From positions 1-10,904 of IMG/VR virus record IMGVR_UViG_2660238215_000014: a DNA stretch of 10,904 nucleotides. One strand, given 5' to 3'. Positions 1-10,904 of the stretch are shown piece after piece. The stretch is from a virus (Duplodnaviria; Heunggongvirae; Uroviricota; Caudoviricetes). A model generated the notes under the pieces. It saw nothing but the letters and a program-made list of their open reading frames with translations. It searched no databases and was not told the origin of the DNA. Position numbers and translations under genes: made by a program. Numbering within the stretch: the stretch's first letter is position 1; every line of letters starts with the position of its first letter.

Positions 1-78
1 CCACCAGTATAAGTTATTGATATATAGAAAAATAAAAATTTTTAGTGTCGAATCTGGTTGTTTTTTGTTCATCACTGG
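1..78. repeat. Copy A of a 78-bp imperfect direct repeat (copy B at 8446-8523; 72/78 identical), located 30-108 bp upstream of the terS start
   Basis: Base-by-base alignment of 1-78 with 8446-8523 gives 6 mismatches (positions 7, 14, 26, 29, 30, 55 of the repeat); longest exact blocks are 24 and 23 bp. Contains the 10-bp palindrome AAAAATTTTT (34-43) and TGTTCAtC (66-73), one mismatch from the origin octamer. The window starts inside or at the edge of this repeat, so its leftward extent is unknown. Confidence 0.85.
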
Positions 79-106
79 TGTGTGTTTACATAATTTTCAG
101 GGGGAG
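65..106 (+). promoter_or_regulatory. Putative sigma70-type promoter and ribosome binding site for terS
   Basis: -35-like TTGTTC (65-70), 18-bp spacer, -10-like CATAAT (89-94), Shine-Dalgarno GGGGGAG (100-106) just before ATG 109. Pattern match only; the -10 lies outside the repeated 78 bp and is not conserved in copy B. Confidence 0.3.
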
Positions 107-108
107 TT

Positions 109-585
109 ATGGATCGTGAATTAAAAAATCTGCATCTGAATATTTCCCAACTGGCCGCATTATCCGGTGCTCATCGACAGACTGTTGCGGCTCGGGTAAA
201 AAACATAAGCCCAGCCGGTGGTCATGAGAGCAATCTCAAACTGTACCGACTGACAGATATCCTTGCCGAGCTGATGAAAGCTCCTCTGCCTGTAGATAAC
301 GAGGAAATGGATCCTCATGCGCGTAAAGCATGGTACCAGTCAGAACGTGACCGACTGAAATTTGAGCAGGAAACTGGTCAGCTTGTGCCAGTCAGTGATG
401 TCAGGCGGTCCTTTTCTGTCGTGGTGAAAGCGATAGTTCAGGTACTGGAAACCTGGCCTGACCGGCTGGAGAGGGACAGGGGGTGGACCGCATCACAACT
501 GAATGAAGTACAGATTGTGGTTGATGAGATCCGCGACACACTGGAAAAGGCAGTCATTGACTGTTGTGATGAGGCCGATATGTGA
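109..585 (+). CDS. terS: Phage terminase small subunit (Nu1-like, N-terminal helix-turn-helix DNA-binding domain)
   Basis: 158-aa ORF with good RBS; N-terminal motif LNISQLAALSGAHRQTVAARV resembles the winged-HTH of small terminases; its stop overlaps the start of the gpA-type large terminase ORF (GTGA at 582-585), the classic terS-terL coupling. Confidence 0.65.
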   Translation: MDRELKNLHLNISQLAALSGAHRQTVAARVKNISPAGGHESNLKLYRLTDILAELMKAPLPVDNEEMDPHARKAWYQSERDRLKFEQETGQLVPVSDVRRSFSVVVKAIVQVLETWPDRLERDRGWTASQLNEVQIVVDEIRDTLEKAVIDCCDEADM

Positions 586-1589
586 ATCAGGTGAACGAGA
601 GCCATAGCCGCGCATCCGATATCTGGCGCGAAGTGGCCTCGCTGTTTCGCCCACCCAGCCGGTTACCAGTAGCGGAAGCCATCAGGCGTTATATGCGGGT
701 TCCACGGGGAGCCAATACTTCCGGTCCGTGGGAGTCATCGCTGACGCCCTATATGATTGACCCCATTAATACATTATCAGCCCGTGAATATGACGCGGTG
801 GTGTTTGTGGGACCTGCGCGAACCGGGAAAACCGAAGGGCTGATTGATGGCTGGATTGTGTACGGCATCATCTGTGATCCGGCGGATATGCTGGTGGTGC
901 AGATGACTGAGACGAAGGCGCGTGAGCATTCCAGAACGCGTCTTTCCAGGACGTTTCGCCACAGTCCGGAGGTCAGCAAGCGCCTCAGTCCTTCCCGTAA
1001 TGACAACAACGTCCACGATAAAATGTTTCTTGACGGCTCCTTCCTGAAGATTGGCTGGCCGTCGATCACCGTCTTTTCCTCTTCGGATTACCGTCGTGTG
1101 GCGCTGACGGATTATGACCGTTTCCCTGAAAACGTGGACGGGGAAGGGGATGCCTTCACGCTGGCCTCAAAGCGTACCACCACCTTTATGTCCTCGGGGA
1201 TGACCCTGGTCGAGAGTTCACCGGGGCGGGATATCACCGATACCAAATGGCGTTGTGGTGGCGCACATGAGGCACCGCCAACAACGGGGATCCTGTCACT
1301 GTATAACCGGGGAGACCGCCGCCGGTGGTACTGGCCGTGTCCGCACTGCGGGGAATATTTTCAGCCGGTGATGGATAACATGACCGGATACCGGAATAAC
1401 CCGGATTTTGTGGCTGCCGGTCAGGCTGCCCGTCTGATGTGTCCGCATTGTCGCGGGCTGATTGCCCCTGAGCAGAAACGCGAACTGAATAACCAGGGGA
1501 TCTGGCTTCGTGAAGGTGAACGGGCGGCGGCGGACGGCAGTATCACCGGAACGCCACGAAACTCCCGGATTGCGTCATTTTGGATGTAG
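582..1589 (+). pseudogene. terL: Large terminase, lambda gpA family, N-terminal fragment only (335 aa versus about 640 aa expected)
   Basis: Walker A GPARTGKT; paired CxxC motifs (CPHCGEYF ... CPHCRGL) as in lambda gpA from memory; gpA-like similarity continues to the last residues (GIWLREG ... ASFWM), then a TAG stop at 1587-1589 coincides with a sharp shift to AT-rich non-coding DNA. No continuation in any frame. Confidence 0.8.
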
Positions 1590-1750
1590 GGTACATTTCT
1601 TACCTGTTTGTATGTTCTGGTGTCGATTCATAGTCTTTTCAATGAGTTGTGATTTTATGAGTTTCCTCTCTTTGCTTGATAATGAGTTAGTTTATCGCTT
1701 GTTATTGGCTTGAATGGACTACATGACGGACTAAAAAATGAGGGCGATAG

Positions 1751-2989
1751 ATGTCGGTAAAGCCATTAACCGTGACTGAAGTTAAGGGGATGAAACCACG
1801 TGAAAAGGACTATGCCGTTTATGATGGGTTCGGTTTATTGCTGAATGTGAGTAAAGCCGGTGGGAAAGTGTGGCGTTTCCGTTATAGCCATCCGATAACG
1901 AAGAAACGGCAGACATACACGATAGGACGTTTTCCTGAATTCTCACTCGCGGAAGCACGGGAAGTACGTGATGAACTTCGGCGAATGATTGCACGTGGAG
2001 TTGATCCAGTGACGGAGAAGAAAAATCGTAAAATTGAGATGTCACTAAAAAATCTACAGACATTTGAAGCTGTTGCTAATGCATGGTTCGCTTTTAAAAA
2101 GGGATCTGAATTGCGGAAACCTACGCTGTATAATATCGAATATGAAGTATACAAATATCTTGTTCCTTTCTTTGGTAAGTACAGTATAGAAAAAATTACA
2201 GCACCAGTAGCTATTAATGCTCTGGATGCCGTATCCGATAAGAATGCGTTGCAAAAAAAATTAATATCAAGATTAAATGAAATTATGAATTATGCTGTAA
2301 ATTGTGGAGCATTGAAAGCAAATCCATTACTTAAGATAAAGACTGCATTCACAGGAAAGAAAAATAAATCATTAGCAGCACTACCTGTTGAAAGATTGCC
2401 TGAATTTCTGAGCTGGTGGGATAGTGTGCCTCATACCTATCAAATAGCTCATAATGCACTTTTATTCCAGATATTGACAATGGTTAGGCCAGGTGAGGCG
2501 ATTAAAGCAGAGTGGTCAGAGATTGATTTTGATTCTGGCTTGTGGATTATCCCCGCGCATAAAATGAAATGCCATCGTGAACATGTTGTTCCCTTGTCAT
2601 CACAGGCTATTAGTATCCTCAGAACAATGCAGGAAATAAAAAGAGGGCGTTATGTGTTTTTTTCCTCCAGAACAAAAGATGCGCCTATGGGGAGGAATAC
2701 TATCAAGACCCCAATTGCTGCCAGCAAGTTCAAAGGGATTGTAACGTTACATGGTTTTCGTTCAATGTGGAGTACGCTTTTAAATGAGGAGGGATTTAAC
2801 CCCGATGTAATCGAGGCTGCATTGGCGCATAAAAGTGGTGATAAAATAAGAGATATTTATAATAGAACTATTTATCTAGAACAGCGTAAGATCATGATGC
2901 AATGGGTCGGTGATTTTTTTGATGATGCGAGAAAAGGGGTAATTAATAGATCCGGTGGTATGAAAGGTTTAAGAGTAGTAAATGGTTGA
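1751..2989 (+). CDS. int: Tyrosine site-specific integrase, P4-like family (N-terminal arm-binding domain plus catalytic domain)
   Basis: 412 aa; N-terminus GLLLNVSKAGGKVWRFRYSHP...GRFPEFSLAEAREVRDEL matches the P4-type integrase arm-binding domain; C-terminal catalytic signature R (MVRPGEA), HGFRSMWST, LAHKSGDKIRDIYNRTIY with terminal Tyr. RBS GAGGG 6 nt upstream. Gene is markedly more AT-rich than its neighbours. Confidence 0.9.
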   Translation: MSVKPLTVTEVKGMKPREKDYAVYDGFGLLLNVSKAGGKVWRFRYSHPITKKRQTYTIGRFPEFSLAEAREVRDELRRMIARGVDPVTEKKNRKIEMSLKNLQTFEAVANAWFAFKKGSELRKPTLYNIEYEVYKYLVPFFGKYSIEKITAPVAINALDAVSDKNALQKKLISRLNEIMNYAVNCGALKANPLLKIKTAFTGKKNKSLAALPVERLPEFLSWWDSVPHTYQIAHNALLFQILTMVRPGEAIKAEWSEIDFDSGLWIIPAHKMKCHREHVVPLSSQAISILRTMQEIKRGRYVFFSSRTKDAPMGRNTIKTPIAASKFKGIVTLHGFRSMWSTLLNEEGFNPDVIEAALAHKSGDKIRDIYNRTIYLEQRKIMMQWVGDFFDDARKGVINRSGGMKGLRVVNG

Positions 2990-3002
2990 GGAGGTTCAGC
3001 AA

Positions 3003-3206
3003 ATGAATACCAATGAAGATATTTTATTTACTAAAGACGTAATGAAAATCTTGCGATATGGAGCAATGAGTGCATTCATCAATTTCTGGAAAGATGAGAA
3101 TAATGGTTTTCCTCAGCCGTTCAGAATTGGACGACGACATACCTGGCACCGTAGAGATGTAGAAGCATGGTTAGATAAACAACGAGAACAGGCCAATCCC
3201 CACTAA
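3003..3206 (+). CDS. alpA: AlpA/Vis-like small HTH transcriptional regulator or excisionase
   Basis: The track ORF starts at 2982, but a strong SD GAGGAGG (2988-2994) sits 8 nt before the in-frame ATG at 3003, giving 67 aa. Motif FPQPFRIGRRHTWHRRDVEAWL fits the AlpA family (FP-P-ilG-r---W---dV--Wl). Immediately downstream of int in the same orientation, as in P4 (vis) and Gram-negative PICIs. Confidence 0.75.
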   Translation: MNTNEDILFTKDVMKILRYGAMSAFINFWKDENNGFPQPFRIGRRHTWHRRDVEAWLDKQREQANPH

Positions 3207-3220
3207 TAATATCTTTCATA

Positions 3221-3245
3221 CCCCGCGTGCAATGCGGGGTTTTTT
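3221..3245 (+). terminator. Rho-independent terminator after int-alpA
   Basis: Stem CCCCGC (3221-3226), loop GTGCAAT, stem GCGGGG (3234-3239), followed by TTTTTT (3240-3245). Confidence 0.7.
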
Positions 3246-3265
3246 GTATGTGAGGTAAAAAAGAA

Positions 3266-3847
3266 ATGAATAAAAATATTGCCGTGACGGGCAAGGGTGA
3301 CGCACGTCATGTAAAAAAATTCTGTGATATTCGTGATCTGGTCGTTCTGCGCTTTGATAGTGTGAACGTTCGCGTGGTGTATCTGAACGGCGATCCGTGG
3401 TTTGTTGCAAAGGATGTTTGTGTTGCTCTGGAAATAAGTAACTCACGCGATGCTCTAAAAGCACTAGATGCGGATGAAAAGAAAACCGTCGCTTTAAGCT
3501 ACGGTATTCGAGGAAATCCAAATCATAGCCTCATTTCTGAATCCGGTTTTTACAAGCTGATCGCCAGAAGTCGGAAAGCTGTTACTCCTGGCACGTTCGC
3601 CCATCGTTTCAGTAACTGGGTATTCAGGAATGTGATACCGGGTATCAGAAAAACGGGGGCTTATGGTATCCCGTGGGGTGTAGTACAGGATTTTTCCCGC
3701 CGCAAAGAGCAATACCAGATAAGTGCCAGCGAGAAGGGGAGGGCGCTACAGGCATGTAAGCGCAAAAAACGTGAACTGGAGGAAGAAGAAAAAAGGCTGA
3801 TACGTGAATATCAGCCTGAGTTTTACTTTGGCAACCGCATTCAGTGA
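3266..3847 (+). CDS. Bro-N domain protein (antirepressor-like N-terminal domain, short coiled-coil-like C-terminus, no obvious KilA-C domain)
   Basis: 193 aa; hallmark Bro-N motifs VRVVYLNGDPWFVAKDVCVALEI ... SGFYKLIARSRKAVTPGTFAHRFSNWVFRNVIPGIRKTGAYG; SD GAGG 10 nt upstream of ATG 3266; C-terminal 50 aa rich in K/R/E. Confidence 0.8.
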   Translation: MNKNIAVTGKGDARHVKKFCDIRDLVVLRFDSVNVRVVYLNGDPWFVAKDVCVALEISNSRDALKALDADEKKTVALSYGIRGNPNHSLISESGFYKLIARSRKAVTPGTFAHRFSNWVFRNVIPGIRKTGAYGIPWGVVQDFSRRKEQYQISASEKGRALQACKRKKRELEEEEKRLIREYQPEFYFGNRIQ

Positions 3848-3879
3848 CAAAACAAAGGCGACCCGGATCAGAGGTCGCC
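3847..3879 (-). terminator. Putative rho-independent terminator for the minus-strand RHH gene
   Basis: Inverted repeat GGCGACC (3857-3863) / GGTCGCC (3873-3879) with 9-nt loop; on the minus strand the hairpin is followed by TTTGTTTTGT (complement of 3847-3856). Confidence 0.5.
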
Positions 3880-3970
3880 AATGGGAAAACACTAAACATA
3901 AGCCCAAACATCATAGCGATTTGTTGGCTGGTGGGCAATGTGATCAGTGTGCTGGCTTGCTGGTGGATTG

Positions 3971-4859: not shown

Positions 4860-5085
4860 TGATCGTTTTAATTCCCTGAAACGGGAATTTGATGGCGCAC
4901 AGGAAGATGCAGCGGGCGCATTGTTGAGCGTTGCTGACATGATGAAAGCTGCATATTTTCTTATCAATACCAGTGGCTACAAGTCAGAGGGTGAAATGAT
5001 TCTTAGTATTGCGTCGGACTATGCGGAATATGTGGCAGAGACGCGTTACAGAAGAAAATTCACGGAGGATGTAAGCCATGCATAA
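4852..5085 (+). CDS. Hypothetical protein (77 aa)
   Basis: ATG overlaps the end of the previous gene by 8 nt; SD GGGGGG upstream; acidic, helical-looking sequence, no recognisable motif. Confidence 0.5.
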   Translation: MRDDRFNSLKREFDGAQEDAAGALLSVADMMKAAYFLINTSGYKSEGEMILSIASDYAEYVAETRYRRKFTEDVSHA

Positions 5086-5279
5086 TCATGAAGCGCATGT
5101 ACCCGTAGTGCTTAATGTGCCAGATGATTTCACCGGACGCGTACTGGTTTACCTGGATAAAGGGAAAGTGAAATCACAATGCCGACTGAAAAGTAATGAG
5201 ATTGTTGGTTCTCCTGAATTTTTTTTCTGAACTTTGTATTCGTGCGGAAATAAAACCGGAACTGCTGACAGGAAAATAA
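5078..5279 (+). pseudogene. Third copy of the FTG domain (paralog of 4494-4859), interrupted by a frameshift at a T8 homopolymer (5219-5226)
   Basis: ATG 5078 overlaps the previous stop (ATGCATAA). Frame 1 gives MHNHEAHVPVVLNVPDDFTGRVLVYLDKGKVKSQCRLKSNEIVGSPEFFF* (stop 5228-5230); the +1 frame continues SELCIRAEIKPELLTGK* (stop 5277-5279), which aligns with the ELAERARLIKPL part of the paralog. Not in the ORF track because each piece is under 60 aa. Confidence 0.5.
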
Positions 5280-5574: not shown

Positions 5575-7370
5575 AAAACGCACCGAGTCTAAAATATCAG
5601 CTGAAGGATAAATTCACTGAGGTAATCATTTTTGCCGGGACGGATGCTTACGCCCATGCTCAACACTGGATTGAAAGTGAAGGACGAAAACACGGCGATA
5701 ACGTGCCTCCTGTTTACCTGGGGCCAAAGCAACTGGCAGACCTGGCGAATATCCGCATTATTGACGAGAAACGCCGTTTTGCGCGTGTCTATATCGCGGG
5801 GGAGATAGAGCCAATCCAGATCAATACTATCGCTGAAAAGCTGGCGCTGGCTGGCGTACAGGAGGCGAAATTATACAAAGGTATCACCGACCAGGAACCG
5901 GAGAACTGGCGCGACTACCTGCAACGGATCCGCGAACAGGCTGAGCACGGGGAAGTTTCAGTGATGAAATTAGCTACAAAAAATAGTGGTCTACCCAAGC
6001 CTGCATTAAATCAGATGGGAGCCAGCCAGAGAGGGGAAGTGTTACTTGAACATTATGGAGGAGCACTGGCGATTCATGCTGACTCTGACACTGTTCACCA
6101 TTACAACGGCGTTGTATGGGAGCCAGTACAGGATAAAGAATTACAGCGAGCTATGGCACAGATTTTCATTGATGCGGAGATCAGCTATTCGCAGAACGCC
6201 ATTAAATCGGCGGTAGATACCATGAAGTTAAGTTTGCCTGTAATGGGGAATACAGCCCGTAACCTGATTGGATTCAGTAACGGTGTTTTTGATACCCGGA
6301 CAGGCGATTTTCGGGAGCATAACAAAAACGACTGGTTGTTAATTGCCAGTGAATTACCTTTCAGCCCACCAGCAGAGGGGGAAACGCTGGCAACACATGC
6401 GCCGAATTTCTGGAAGTGGTTACGCCGTTCGGTGGCTGAGAATGACCGCAAGGCGGATCGCGTACTGGCTGCATTATTCATGGTGCTGGCGAACCGGTAC
6501 GACTGGCAGTTATTCATTGAGGTAACAGGTCCAGGGGGAAGTGGTAAAAGCGTGATGGCGGAGATTTGCACCATGCTGGCGGGTAAGGCCAACACGGTAT
6601 CGGCAAGCATGAAGGCGCTGGAAGATGCCAGGGAACGCGCGTTAGTGGTTGGCTTTTCGCTGATTATCATGCCGGATATGACCCGCTACGCTGGTGATGG
6701 GGCAGGGATTAAGGCTATTACAGGCGGTGACAAGGTGGCAATTGACCCGAAACACAAAGCCCCCTACTCAACGCGTATTCCGGCAGTAGTGCTGGCGGTT
6801 AACAATAACGCCATGTCATTCAGTGACCGCAGCGGGGGGATCTCACGTCGTCGGGTGATATTCAATTTTTCGGAAGTTGTACAGGAGAACGAACGCGATC
6901 CAATGCTGGCGGAAAAAATAGAAGGTGAGCTGGCGGTAGTGATTCGCCATCTGCTTACACGGTTTGCTGACCAGGACGAAGCCAGACGCCTGTTATATGA
7001 GCAGCAGAAATCTGAAGAAGCACTGGCGATAAAGCGAGAGGGGGATTCGCTGGTGGACTTCTGCGGCTATCTCATGGCGTCGGTAATGTGTGATGGCCTG
7101 TTAGTGGGTAATGCTGAAATTGTACCATTCAGCCCACGCAGGTATCTCTATCATGCCTATCTGGCTTATATGCGGGCACATGGGTTTGGTAAACCTGTAA
7201 CACTGACTCGCTTCGGTAAAGATATGCCGGGGGCAATGGCGGAATATGGCAGGGAGTATATGAAACGGAAAACGAAGCACGGTTTGCGTTCAAACGTGAC
7301 ACTGATGGAGGAATCAGAAGACTGGATGCCATCATGTGTATCGGTCACTAATGACGATAGCAAAAATTAA
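5571..7370 (+). CDS. Replication initiator primase/helicase (pri-rep; P4 alpha-like / D5-type SF3 helicase with P-loop)
   Basis: 599 aa, GTG start with SD GGAGGT (5560-5565); Walker A GPGGSGKS near residue 310 with downstream hydrophobic strand and acidic motif (LIIMPDMT); N-terminal region resembles a primase/Toprim-like domain; cognate iteron origin lies immediately 3' of the gene. Confidence 0.8.
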   Translation: MKNAPSLKYQLKDKFTEVIIFAGTDAYAHAQHWIESEGRKHGDNVPPVYLGPKQLADLANIRIIDEKRRFARVYIAGEIEPIQINTIAEKLALAGVQEAKLYKGITDQEPENWRDYLQRIREQAEHGEVSVMKLATKNSGLPKPALNQMGASQRGEVLLEHYGGALAIHADSDTVHHYNGVVWEPVQDKELQRAMAQIFIDAEISYSQNAIKSAVDTMKLSLPVMGNTARNLIGFSNGVFDTRTGDFREHNKNDWLLIASELPFSPPAEGETLATHAPNFWKWLRRSVAENDRKADRVLAALFMVLANRYDWQLFIEVTGPGGSGKSVMAEICTMLAGKANTVSASMKALEDARERALVVGFSLIIMPDMTRYAGDGAGIKAITGGDKVAIDPKHKAPYSTRIPAVVLAVNNNAMSFSDRSGGISRRRVIFNFSEVVQENERDPMLAEKIEGELAVVIRHLLTRFADQDEARRLLYEQQKSEEALAIKREGDSLVDFCGYLMASVMCDGLLVGNAEIVPFSPRRYLYHAYLAYMRAHGFGKPVTLTRFGKDMPGAMAEYGREYMKRKTKHGLRSNVTLMEESEDWMPSCVSVTNDDSKN

Positions 7371-7382
7371 ACTTATGGAATA

Positions 7383-7613
7383 ACTGTTCACCACTGTTCA
7401 CCCTGTCATAAATATCTTTTATATCAGTATATTATAGGGTGAACAGTTATTTATTAACTGTTCACCAAACTATTCACTGTTCACCTTTTTGATTGTTTAT
7501 TGAGCTTCAAGGGTGAACAGTGGTGAACAGTTGGTGAATAGTTTTTGTGAAACTGTTCACCAATTAACATTATGAATTAAAAGATAAAATATCAAAAGGT
7601 GAACAGGTGAAGG
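7383..7613. repeat. Replication origin: array of TGTTCACC iterons in both orientations with AT-rich spacers
   Basis: Perfect forward copies at 7385-7392, 7395-7402, 7459-7466, 7478-7485, 7554-7561; perfect inverted copies (GGTGAACA) at 7438-7445, 7512-7519, 7522-7529, 7598-7605; degenerate copies at 7471-7478, 7533-7540, 7606-7613; AT-rich stretches 7403-7437 and 7562-7597. Confidence 0.85.
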
Positions 7614-7657
7614 GTTAAAACGCAAAAATTTTAATTTACTGCTGTGAGATAAAGCCT

Positions 7658-7903
7658 ATGACAGCGAAGCACACAAAAAAATCACAATCGCACGCCCTTG
7701 ATTTGACGGAACACTGGTTAAGGGTGTCGATAAAAATCATCGACCGCAACGCCGGGGAAGGATATGCGAAAGCACATCCCGAACTAATAATCGCATTCAT
7801 GACCACGGCGGCGGCAAACTTTGCCACGCTGACGGAACGGGAGATTGCCGAAGCGGAACAGGTAACAACCATCAACGTTAAAACCGGAGAGGTGGAATCA
7901 TGA
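7658..7903 (+). CDS. Hypothetical protein (81 aa)
   Basis: ORF downstream of the origin; its stop overlaps the SSB-like start (ATGA 7900-7903), suggesting an operon; no recognisable motif. Confidence 0.4.
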   Translation: MTAKHTKKSQSHALDLTEHWLRVSIKIIDRNAGEGYAKAHPELIIAFMTTAAANFATLTEREIAEAEQVTTINVKTGEVES

Positions 7904-8323
7904 CAGCACAGATAGCCGCTTACGGGCGGCTGGTGGACGACCCGCAGGTAAAACAGACCAGCAAGGGCACACCGATGACGCTGGCGCGTATGGCGGTCCC
8001 CCCTTCCGTGCAGCCAGGCAGATGACGGAACGGCGACGATGTGGTTATCCGTCCTGGCATTTGGCAGACAGGCCGAAGCACTGGAAAGGCACCGCAAGGG
8101 TGAACTCCTGAGCGTGGCGGGTAACATGCAGATCAGCCAGTGGACTGGGCAGAACGGAGAAACGCGGCAGGGCTGGCAGGTTATCGCAGACAGTGTAATC
8201 AGTGCGCGAACGGCGCGACTGGGCGGCAAAAAAGGTCAACAAGGCCAGGCTACTGACGCGCTGAACAGGGCAAAACAACAGGCGGGGAATGATGATCCGT
8301 ACGGGGATAACATACCGTTTTAA
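7900..8323 (+). pseudogene. ssb: Single-stranded DNA-binding (SSB)-like gene split by a frameshift at a C6 run (7998-8003)
   Basis: Frame 1 from ATG 7900: MTAQIAAYGRLVDDPQVKQTSKGTPMTLARMAV..., resembling the SSB N-terminus ([27 protein letters not shown]), stop at 8023-8025. Frame 2 open from 7979 through track ORF 8039-8323: ...WLSVLAFGRQAEALERHRKGELLSVAGNMQISQWTGQNGETRQGWQVIADSV ... DNIPF, resembling the SSB OB-fold core and IPF tail. Confidence 0.6.
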
Positions 8324-8339
8324 GCGACGAGTGACAGAA

Positions 8340-8361
8340 GCCGGAGCAATCCGGCTTTTTT
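8340..8361 (+). terminator. Rho-independent terminator after the SSB-like gene
   Basis: Stem GCCGGA (8340-8345), loop GCAA, stem TCCGGC (8350-8355), then TTTTTT (8356-8361). Confidence 0.75.
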
Positions 8362-8445: not shown

Positions 8446-8523
8446 CCACCACTATAAGCTATTGATATATTGAGGAATAAAAATTTTTAGTGTCGAATCA
8501 GGTTGTTTTTTGTTCATCACTGG
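8446..8523. repeat. Copy B of the 78-bp imperfect direct repeat (copy A at 1-78)
   Basis: See copy A. Weaker homology continues about 25 bp further (TTTACA ... CAGG) with an indel. In copy B the -10-like element of copy A is replaced (CAAAAA in place of CATAAT). Confidence 0.85.
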
Positions 8524-8790
8524 AACGTTCCCGAAAACATTTACAAAAAAACAGGCGCAAAAAAAAGCGCCCCCGATTGCTGTTACCGGAGGCGCTTTTA
8601 CACGACAAAGGAGTTTTTATCGCCAGGATGACGAGTCTTAATATTGCTTCAATGGCAAAAATGCGTCAATGGCTTTGCCTCTCTGAGAATAATCAGAAAA
8701 AACATAATCTGATTTTCAGGTAGAAAATGATTTATCTATTGCTTTTATCGATCAATAATGATGCCCGTTAATCAAAACGGAGGCGGATTT

Positions 8791-8985
8791 ATGCCAGAGA
8801 ACAACACCAGAAAGCCGGATAAAAGTGCCACGGTACACATAGACGCCGGAACTATGGAGAAGATCGAACGCTATCAGCAGTTCATCAAAGATAATCACCC
8901 GGGTATGCCGGTACCCACGAAAGGACAAATCACACGCAGCGCGGTTGAATACTGGTACCAGGCAACGTTAGGAGCCTGGCTATGA
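8791..8985 (+). CDS. Small hypothetical protein (65 aa from ATG 8791; track start 8758), possibly RHH-like, translationally coupled to the protease-capsid gene
   Basis: Strong SD GGAGG (8779-8783) 7 nt before ATG 8791; stop overlaps the capsid ORF start (ATGA 8982-8985); pattern ATVHIDAGTMEKIERYQQFIK ... TKGQITRSAVEYWYQA is compatible with a beta-strand / helix / helix fold. Confidence 0.45.
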   Translation: MPENNTRKPDKSATVHIDAGTMEKIERYQQFIKDNHPGMPVPTKGQITRSAVEYWYQATLGAWL

Positions 8986-10871
8986 AAACATGGTTTTCCA
9001 TTAAGGCTATGGCAGATGTTGTCTATGTGCGTATTTATGACGAGATCGGCGGGTACGGTGTAAAAGCATCGACACTTACTGACGAGATCAACGCGTGCGG
9101 TAATGCGTCTGAAATCCATCTTCGCATCCATTCACCTGGTGGCGACATCTTTGAAGGGCTGGCTATCTATAACGCCCTGAAAAATCATCCGGCAAAGAAA
9201 ATTGTACACATTGAAGGCATGGCGGCTTCTATGGCCTCGTTTATTGCCATGTGTGGCGATCACATCGTTATGCCTGAAAACGCGATGATGATGATACATG
9301 CCCCCCGTGGTGTTACTGCCGGAGTGTCGGGCGACGTTCGCCGCTTTGCTGACCTGATGGACAAGCTGGGCGACACGATGGCGGAAACCTACGCCGGAAG
9401 AACGGGCAGGAGCAAACAGGAGATCACCTCAATGATGGAGGCGGAAACCTGGATGGATGGCAATGAGTGTAAGGCTAACGGCTTCGCAGATGAGGTTATA
9501 CCCGCGATTACAGCAATGGCCCGAATTGAATCAAAACGAATCGGAGATTTTTCAAATATGCCGGAAAAAATTAAAAGCATGATCAGCCAGAAAACTGGCA
9601 GTGGCGAACAGGAACGACTTAACGGAATCCGTGAATTGTTTGGCACCTTCAACGGAAGATATAACGACCTGGCTATAAGTTGTCTTGCGGATTCAGAATG
9701 TAGCGTTGAGAATGCACGCGAACGCCTTTTACTCGCTATGGGTAAAGAATCAACGCCAACAAACAAAACCACCCCCGCAAATCTTTACTACGCGTACACG
9801 GATAACGGCAATATAACCGGCGATGCCATGCGTCAGGGGCTTAATGCGCGTCTTGGTCACGAACGGGCCGAACGCGGTAATCCTTACGCCATGATGAGCC
9901 TTTTCGATATGGCACAGGCATCATTAACCCATCGTGGTATAAGCACGGGCAGCTACAGCACACGCTCGCAGATAGTAAACGCGGCATTCACCCACAGCAG
10001 CAGCGATTTTACCGATATCCTTGCTGGTGGCGCTGAAAAATCAGTGCTTGCAGGCTGGGAGCACAGCGGCGAAACATTCCGCCAGTGGACGAAAAAAGGT
10101 TCCCTTTCAAACTTCCGGGAAGCCCGCCGCGTTGGTATGAATGGCTTCTCAACGTTAAACAAAGTGCCGGAAGGGGCAGAATATAAATACATCACCACCA
10201 GCGATCGCGGTGAACCCATCGCGCTGGCTACTTACGGGAATATTTTCAGTATTACCCGCCAGGCGATAATCAATGATGACCTTGATCAGTTATCAACGGT
10301 GCCAATGGCTATGGGCCGTGCAGCATCAAGAACGGTGGGAAATCTGGTTAATCTGGTGCTTACAGGCAACGTAAAACTTTCTGACGGAATAACGCTGTTT
10401 GACAAAAAACACAGCAACCTGATTGAAACAGGACTGACAACACCGGGACTTAGTGCAGCACGTCACCTGATGCGCACACAGAAGGACAAAAATGGCGAAG
10501 TGCTGAATATTGCGCCTAAATTCCTTTTAGTTCCGGCAGCACTGGAAGATCGCGCGTTGCAGATGATTAACTCAACCGCACCTTTCGGGGCTGATAAAAA
10601 CAGCGGGATCTTTAACCCGTATCACAAGCTACTTGATATCATCGTCGATCCCCGCCTTGATGATATCAGCGAAAAACAATGGTACATGCTTTCCGCACAG
10701 GGAACGGACACAATCGAGGTGGCTTATCTTGATGGCAATGACGAGCCTTACCTTGAACAGCAGGAAGGTTTTATCGTTGACGGCGTGGCCTGGAAAGTCC
10801 GTATTGATGCAGGTGTGGCAGCTCTGGATTATCGCGGTATGGTCAAATCAGGCGGGACAGATTCACTATGA
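8982..10871 (+). CDS. Prohead serine protease (ClpP/S14-like) fused to an HK97-fold major capsid protein
   Basis: 629 aa; N-terminal region has ClpP-like signatures (HSPGGDIFEGLAIYNAL, catalytic Ser context GMAASMASF, His context MMMIHAP); the C-terminal 350 aa or so resemble phage major capsid proteins; followed directly by a strong terminator, typical of a highly expressed capsid gene. Confidence 0.8.
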   Translation: MKTWFSIKAMADVVYVRIYDEIGGYGVKASTLTDEINACGNASEIHLRIHSPGGDIFEGLAIYNALKNHPAKKIVHIEGMAASMASFIAMCGDHIVMPENAMMMIHAPRGVTAGVSGDVRRFADLMDKLGDTMAETYAGRTGRSKQEITSMMEAETWMDGNECKANGFADEVIPAITAMARIESKRIGDFSNMPEKIKSMISQKTGSGEQERLNGIRELFGTFNGRYNDLAISCLADSECSVENARERLLLAMGKESTPTNKTTPANLYYAYTDNGNITGDAMRQGLNARLGHERAERGNPYAMMSLFDMAQASLTHRGISTGSYSTRSQIVNAAFTHSSSDFTDILAGGAEKSVLAGWEHSGETFRQWTKKGSLSNFREARRVGMNGFSTLNKVPEGAEYKYITTSDRGEPIALATYGNIFSITRQAIINDDLDQLSTVPMAMGRAASRTVGNLVNLVLTGNVKLSDGITLFDKKHSNLIETGLTTPGLSAARHLMRTQKDKNGEVLNIAPKFLLVPAALEDRALQMINSTAPFGADKNSGIFNPYHKLLDIIVDPRLDDISEKQWYMLSAQGTDTIEVAYLDGNDEPYLEQQEGFIVDGVAWKVRIDAGVAALDYRGMVKSGGTDSL

Positions 10872-10877
10872 CAACAA

Positions 10878-10899
10878 GGCGGCACCAGCCGCCTTTTTT
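10878..10899 (+). terminator. Rho-independent terminator after the capsid gene
   Basis: Stem GGCGGC (10878-10883), loop ACCA, stem GCCGCC (10888-10893), then TTTTTT (10894-10899). Confidence 0.75.
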
Positions 10900-10904
10900 G
10901 CGGG

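Follow-up and report, generated by a model that had tools for sequence, protein, structure and literature searches.

The window, by which we mean the whole 10,904-nucleotide stretch of DNA analysed here, is contig LKDC01000014.1 of assembly GCA_001440615.1 in its entirety. It carries a phage satellite with an integrase, a regulator and a replication module, at the end of which lies a gene for a single-stranded DNA-binding protein (SSB), ssb, that is split between two reading frames. The features that define the element and the surroundings of ssb are:

1-78 and 8446-8523: cos-like repeats (835-1000, 9280-9445 and 11799-11896 in L030, a contig from another assembly of the same element)
1751-2989: integrase, 412 aa (Phage_integrase, Arm-DNA-bind_3)
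3003-3206: AlpA-like HTH regulator, 67 aa, identical in position to WP_001095275.1
5571-7370, plus strand: D5_N/DUF5906 primase-helicase, 599 aa, intact, the partner of ssb in the replication module
7364-7563, no strand assigned: repeat region with iterons and inverted repeats (GGTGAACAGTT...), bounded by the primase gene on one side and by the 81-aa open reading frame (ORF) on the other
7658-7903, plus strand: 81-aa ORF (phrog_1231), directly upstream of ssb
8338-8361, plus strand: GC-rich hairpin followed by T6, right behind the ssb stop codon (folding energy -21.8 kcal/mol, z = -5.3)

In complete genomes, the relatives of this element begin with a prophage DUF1441 gene (small terminase-like) and the 5' part of a gpA-type large-terminase gene, followed by genes for an integrase, an HTH regulator and a Bro-N protein; then come small ORFs, DUF4222, a D5-type primase, the 81-aa ORF and ssb, and finally a 64-aa ORF, a ClpP-protease/major-capsid fusion gene and the 3' part of the terminase gene. 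The gene order of the window is the same as far as the capsid gene, and the contig stops short of the right junction. The gpA-type large-terminase gene (terL) is split by the satellite into 5' and 3' pseudogene halves (window 582-1589, with the integrase gene at 1751-2989; L001 933-1943 and 12175-13305), an arrangement that recurs in complete genomes of O111:H8, O157:H7, O103:H2 and O111:H21 strains. Between the two halves, the relatives contain only replication genes, the protease/capsid fusion gene and small ORFs, and no tail or lysis genes.

The repeat that contains GGTGAACAGTT is present in four copies, partly palindromic, between 7364 and 7563, and these iterons are the probable replication origin of the satellite. 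A cos-like GC-rich sequence located upstream of the prophage terS is repeated just past the ssb terminator (92-93% identical over at least 166 nt), and a partial copy is also found behind the satellite capsid gene; this repeat is probably a packaging site common to the satellite and its helper. The TGA of the 81-aa ORF overlaps the ATG of ssb (ATGA, 7900-7903) and the gene pair is conserved in relatives; the overlap implies that the translation of the two genes is coupled. The hairpin at 8338-8361 looks like an intrinsic terminator, although it is absent from the list returned by a simple terminator scan. With a terminator at this position, the replication operon would end with ssb, and the frameshift described below should therefore have no polar effect.

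The element appears to be a PICI-type satellite of about 10 kb, inserted inside terL of a lambdoid E. coli prophage, its presumed helper. Satellites within prophages have been noted earlier (PMC10085698, Discussion). Like the PICI and cf-PICI satellites (SatelliteFinder families, PMC10085698), the window element has an integrase, an AlpA-like HTH regulator, a primase with adjacent iterons, few head-morphogenesis genes, a cos-like sequence shared with the helper and a size of about 10 kb, and it lacks tail and lysis genes. It differs from them in that it sits in a prophage terL and not at a chromosomal site, and has only the protease/capsid fusion gene instead of the full head module of cf-PICIs (compare L016).

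The ssb gene itself consists of the following parts:

7900-8025, plus strand: 5' fragment of ssb as it is now translated, with the ATG at 7900 and 41 codons followed by TGA at 8023-8025
7998-8003, plus strand: run of six C (C6), the site of the frameshift according to alignments to intact alleles, which have five (C5)
8003-8323, plus strand: rest of ssb, shifted to the +1 frame (corresponding to codons 35-140 in the intact gene and the stop codon)
8039-8323, plus strand: ATG-initiated ORF of 94 aa, ending in ...DNIPF

In the 41-aa product, residues 1-34 are those of the native SSB, and residues 35-41 (PSVQPGR) are read out of frame. The homology in the second frame begins right past the C run, at 8003 (LPCSQADDGTATMW...), and not at the ATG at 8039; the segment 8003-8323 encodes the OB-fold strands beta3-beta5, followed by the linker, and ends with the C-terminal tip ...DDPYGDNIPF. 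Homologues with an intact frame measure 423 nt (140 aa) and have C5 at the tract, which reads GTC CCC CTT CCG (V-P-L-P); those of E. coli O111:H8 8E and O121 RM8352, for instance, are single 423-nt ORFs annotated as "single-stranded DNA-binding protein". The alignment of the O121 gene (GTCCCCCTGCCG) with the window (GTCCCCCCTTCCG) shows that the latter has one C more. When one C is deleted in silico, the window encodes a 140-aa protein that is identical, residue for residue, to the SSB of the WP_000126681.1 type, which is recorded on at least 1000 contigs.

The repaired 140-aa protein matches the profiles PF00436 (55.9 bits over profile positions 4-101, for a cut-off of 26) and TIGR00621 (59.4 bits, cut-off 53.95), PHROG 44 (single strand DNA binding protein, E 3e-37) and solved SSB structures in the PDB (best E 3.9e-11). 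The two fragments cover consecutive parts of PF00436: positions 4-35 for the N-terminal one (17.2 bits, E 0.0055, under the cut-off when taken alone) and positions 49-101 for the C-terminal one (33.4 bits). Since the two pieces tile the profile in this manner, and since the repaired protein is a common one, that they belong to a single SSB gene is far beyond chance. The initial annotation had proposed that the N-terminal piece and the 94-aa ORF are parts of one SSB-family gene, in two frames joined at the CCCCCC run at 7998-8003, and the Pfam tiling and the identity of the repaired protein bear this out; the check that it had suggested, alignment to intact SSB homologues, gives the same answer, both pieces fitting one 140-aa homologue with C6 in the place of C5.

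When the repaired protein is aligned with the E. coli SSB, W48, F55 and W81 face W54, F60 and W88; in the same alignment, the region equivalent to W40 is a gapped loop where no aromatic residue is seen. The frame ends in NDDPYGDNIPF, so that the C-terminal acidic/hydrophobic tip is present. This tip (...D-I-P-F) is the part of SSBs that binds partner proteins. The satellite SSB resembles the chromosomal E. coli SSB (PDB 1EYG/1EQQ) in having a single OB fold, a flexible linker and an acidic/hydrophobic tip ending in IPF. It differs from the E. coli sequence in that it is only 29% identical over the OB domain, is shorter (140 versus 178 aa), has a short linker that is not rich in Gly or Gln, and ends in DNIPF rather than DDDIPF. 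The closest known protein is WP_000126681.1, a RefSeq satellite/prophage SSB found in E. coli Nissle 1917 and O111:H21 15A (140/140 identity once one C is removed), and loci of this type have the same neighbourhood as in the window (primase, small ORF, ssb); the window gene differs by having C6 instead of C5 and by being split into ORFs of 41 and 94 aa. WP_000126660.1 and WP_000126699.1 are further RefSeq SSBs borne by satellites or prophages of E. coli, with the same annotation.

What is absent from the window copy is an uninterrupted reading frame for the whole SSB domain, as a result of the C6 shift and of the TGA at 8023, and this appears to be the sole defining feature of the family that the copy lacks. 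The window copy is thus predicted to be a pseudogene of the bacterial SSB family PF00436/TIGR00621. An antisense ORF of 197 aa over the same locus (7636-8229, minus strand) was discarded as spurious, since it has no PHROG match and the gene opposite is under purifying selection. A search of the window against Rfam returned no match to any RNA family.

Comparison with the intact allele reveals no secondary lesion in either ssb fragment. The window gene differs from the Nissle 1917 allele by the extra C and a synonymous change only (dN = 0, dS = 0.010), and the break is therefore recent. Pairwise dN/dS values between intact ssb alleles range from 0.05 to 0.18, which suggests that these alleles are under purifying selection and that the gene is normally functional. 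Pseudogenes produced by homopolymer slippage in prophage-like elements show the same one-base expansion, premature stop, fixation in one clone and absence of secondary lesions, and the window ssb shows nothing distinctive in comparison.

In 133 complete E. coli genomes, a 131-nt probe that spans the run finds a match at 130/131 positions, and only the extra C sets it apart. The length of the tract in public sequences was surveyed with probes designed so that a wrong run length cannot seed a match. Flanked as in the window, C5 is found in 348 of 5,426 complete E. coli genomes, at 375 places, none of which has a true C6 or C4; the metagenome contigs (31/31) and the IMG/VR contigs (61/61) that have these flanks are all C5 as well. 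Two matches to the C5 probe at 97.9% were considered as carriers of an amber allele (see below) and set aside, both being intact genes with a synonymous change. The sole match to the C6 probe, in strain F3113, is an in-frame C6 that results from a T-to-C substitution (VPPP). This locus of E. coli O157:H7 F3113 (L016 9049-9080, in a cf-PICI-like element at pepT-phoQ) reads GTC CCC CCT CCG, or V-P-P-P, and its ssb allele encodes 136 aa with a different linker.

Exact look-ups of both fragments retrieved two Logan contigs with C6 and five with C4. These contigs are in essence copies of the Nissle 1917 satellite, with identities of up to 99.9%, and nearly all the gaps in the alignments are single-base homopolymer indels, of which L007 has 11 in 10.3 kb and L011 has 9 in 8.6 kb. 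We considered and rejected the idea that they reveal a hypervariable tract, since the runs are error-prone and the high-quality collections are invariant. Homopolymer indels occur about once per kb in the Logan contigs L004, L005, L007, L011 and L013 (runs ERR10498xxx and SRR24308106). By way of such noisy contigs, spurious split ssb, primase and capsid genes enter large collections as "proteins".

These data could be read as meaning that the C6 of the window is itself an artefact, possibly a context-specific miscall common to three assemblies, in which case the true tract would be C5 and the gene intact. C6 is indeed absent from the 375 complete-genome copies and from 92 metagenome and viral copies, the repaired product is a very common protein, and runs that are prone to homopolymer errors miscall this same tract as C4 or C6 (L004, L005, L007, L011 and L013). 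Against this, the exact look-up of two proteins of the window, the 50-aa ORF ended by a run of eight T (T8, see below) and the 599-aa primase, retrieved the same element from two other NCBI assemblies. In GCA_023722065.1, the 26-kb contig L030 is identical to the window at 10903/10904 positions, with a single SNP and no gap, and in GCA_018509965.1 the 25-kb contig L041 is identical over 6800/6800 positions; both contigs have C6 and T8. The SNP in L030 and the differing contig boundaries are the only direct signs that the assemblies are independent. In the collection, 34 index blocks contain the exact primase of the C6 lineage, and at least 15 more runs have Logan contigs that match the window with 100% identity up to position 7947. 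Because the identical C6 is found in two other NCBI assemblies of the same element, we conclude that the allele appears to be real and clonally inherited rather than the product of a sequencing error.

The homopolymers in the rest of the window were compared with those of the relatives. Of the 83 runs of at least five bases, about six differ in length from the relatives. All 28 runs in positions 1-3967, including A8 and several T7, have the same length as in relatives that are 99.4% identical; these 3,967 nt thus have no homopolymer discrepancy, as opposed to about one per kb in the noisy Logan contigs. The approximately 25 runs in 8570-10904 are also matched in length to the relatives. Two tracts other than C6 deserve a description:

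5219-5226, plus strand: T8 run, which ends the small ORF 5078-5230 (phrog_340) at 50 aa
8545-8574: A7 and A8 runs flanking a GCGCC/GGCGC hairpin, terminator-like on the minus strand

The lengths of the A7/A8 runs (8545-8566) vary among relatives, as A6/A7 or A7/A8, and the A7/A8 combination of the window is matched exactly in the complete genomes of S19-651 and O111:H21 15A. With T7, the small ORF at 5078 is 66 aa long, a form that 99 complete genomes match at 99% or more, and T6 is annotated as "frameshifted" in O157:H7 and O103:H2 genomes. For T8, a 116-nt query was used. This allele occurs on 18 contigs, which represent several different satellite backbones and include the complete genome STEC379, and this is a further argument against an artefact. 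Altogether, we consider it very unlikely that the sixth C is an error.

The initial annotation had counted C6 and T8 as two homopolymer-associated frameshifts in one element, and had proposed either systematic homopolymer errors in the assembly or ongoing decay of the element. The C6 lesion stands, but T8 is a widespread allele that shortens a small protein from 66 to 50 aa, and not a lesion private to this element. Systematic errors are contradicted by the recurrence of C6 and T8 in L030 and L041, by the absence of any excess of homopolymer discrepancies and by the occurrence of T8 and of A7/A8 in complete genomes. As for decay, it holds for the inactivation of ssb and does not extend further: the integrase (412 aa), Bro-N (193 aa), primase (599 aa) and protease/capsid (629 aa) are as long as those of intact relatives or differ from them by at most two residues, the ssb fragments have suffered no other damage, and T8 is not private.

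If the tract is real, it could be thought of as a phase-variable (contingency) switch, by which the C tract would toggle ssb at high frequency, together with the T tract at 5219-5226. The fact that two tracts of the same element differ in length from relatives, the circulation of T6, T7 and T8, and the existence of public contigs with C4 and C6 calls are in line with this idea. The survey described above is not: among independent high-quality copies, 0/467 depart from C5 (375 + 31 + 61), the C4 and C6 calls outside the lineage come from runs where every indel is a homopolymer error, and C6 is fixed across at least three assemblies of the lineage. In addition, homopolymeric contingency loci are usually 7 nt or more in length, and a tract of 5-6 nt is below this. 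A switch is in our opinion extremely unlikely. The most economical origin of the allele is that replication slippage lengthened C5 to C6 in this satellite lineage.

After this event, translation would leave the SSB frame past residue 34 and stop at codon 42, and the strands beta3-beta5 of the OB fold and the partner-recruiting C-terminal IPF tip would be lost; the 34 native residues of the truncated product correspond approximately to beta1-beta2. It may be argued that ribosomes correct the frame, by leaky or programmed +1 frameshifting at GUC CCC CCU: the peptidyl-tRNAPro would slip from CCC to the overlapping CCC, with CUU as the next codon, and useful expression would be kept. Indeed slippage in the +1 direction is known for CCC-C (PMC4519876), a slip of this kind in the window gene regenerates exactly the native V-P-L-P, and CC[C/U]-[C/U] sequences give up to about 1% of +1 frameshifting where they are most prone to it, at the second codon of the reporter (PMC4519876). 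However, +1 frameshifting that is not programmed typically stays under 0.003% per codon and reaches about 1% at most, at the best position (PMC4519876), and since SSB acts stoichiometrically, about 1% or less of the normal output is unlikely to be enough. Moreover, the A site has no rare or stop codon, there is no evident stimulator, and the two-frame layout is not conserved, all homologues examined outside the clonal lineage being single ORFs. A small fraction of ribosomes may thus restore the native frame and make authentic SSB, at best a trickle; that frameshifting maintains a useful level of expression is highly improbable.

Alternatively, the 94-aa ORF (8039-8323) could be made by reinitiation 13 nt past the TGA, to give a truncated protein with a function of its own, for example a decoy that titrates the partners of SSB. 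Its ATG is close to the upstream stop and it keeps the ...DDPYGDNIPF tail; moreover, the same ORF is left by three lesions, C6, the Q39-amber mutation described below and the artefactual C4. This recurrence has a simpler explanation, namely that Met47 is the first start codon following any early lesion. According to the alignment with the E. coli SSB, the start of the ORF, M47-W48, aligns with E53-W54, so that the first two OB strands are missing; without beta1-beta2 the barrel is unlikely to form. There is no convincing Shine-Dalgarno motif ahead of the ATG, as judged by reading the sequence, and the ORF is recorded on 22 contigs, compared to at least 1000 for the intact protein, hence no enrichment. 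We regard such a decoy as exceedingly improbable, and we infer that neither the 41-aa nor the 94-aa piece would be a functional SSB.

Other members of the family seem to manage without this gene. In the sister satellites L021, L031 and L033, ssb is missing and the slot (8786-9444 in L021, about 9139-9953 in L031 and L033) is occupied by genes of the PerC family and/or the ProQ/FinO family; the presence of other genes in this slot implies a variable accessory module. In addition, an ssb allele in which C5 is intact and codon 39 is changed from CAG to TAG (Q39-amber) is found in L006 (9863-10285), L009 and L012 (6685-7107) and L010 (6492-6914), whose replication genes differ (D5 primase or AAA_25 helicase); its 38-aa product is recorded on nine contigs. 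Because sister elements lacking ssb and the Q39-amber allele exist, ssb is predicted to be dispensable in this satellite family.

It could even be that the loss of the satellite SSB is recurrent and selected, rather than neutral, having occurred by three routes (C6, Q39-amber in at least four contigs, absence in L021, L031 and L033); we find this very unlikely. Some host defence systems, the retron-type sensors, sense foreign SSBs, and if the loss were selected a possible driver would be the escape from such defences. Another possible driver would be that the cell harbours a second satellite with its own ssb, so that this copy is redundant, which is hinted at by the Logan unitigs of the window lineage (L035, 13 samples; L043). 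All of them end at 7947, 30 nt past the polymorphic site 7917, and because a graph with k = 31 breaks in this manner at a variable site, this suggests that a second, slightly different ssb copy is present on another satellite in those genomes. E. coli genomes contain up to six matching loci. A literature search on SSB in PICIs retrieved nothing directly relevant.

Taken together, the most probable interpretation by far is that the ssb gene was broken by a real, recent and clonally inherited C5-to-C6 expansion, as opposed to an assembly error, a programmed frameshift or a fast switch, and that the satellite is most likely devoid of a functional SSB of its own. Regarding annotation, the coding sequence should be described as a frameshifted ssb pseudogene, and neither as two hypothetical proteins nor as an intact gene. 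The case also illustrates how a real homopolymer frameshift, which recurs in independent assemblies of a clone, can be separated from the C4/C6 artefacts that affect the same tract, and the C6/T8 pair is a handy lineage marker for this satellite. The element is of a known satellite kind, and its gene is a pseudogene copy of an SSB already annotated in RefSeq, so that nothing here is novel. From the biological point of view the finding is minor: in a common E. coli phage satellite, an accessory replication gene has recently become a pseudogene through a one-base change. The lost satellite SSB is probably covered for by a host or paralogous SSB: during its replication, the satellite would rely on the SSB of the host or on that of a co-resident satellite.
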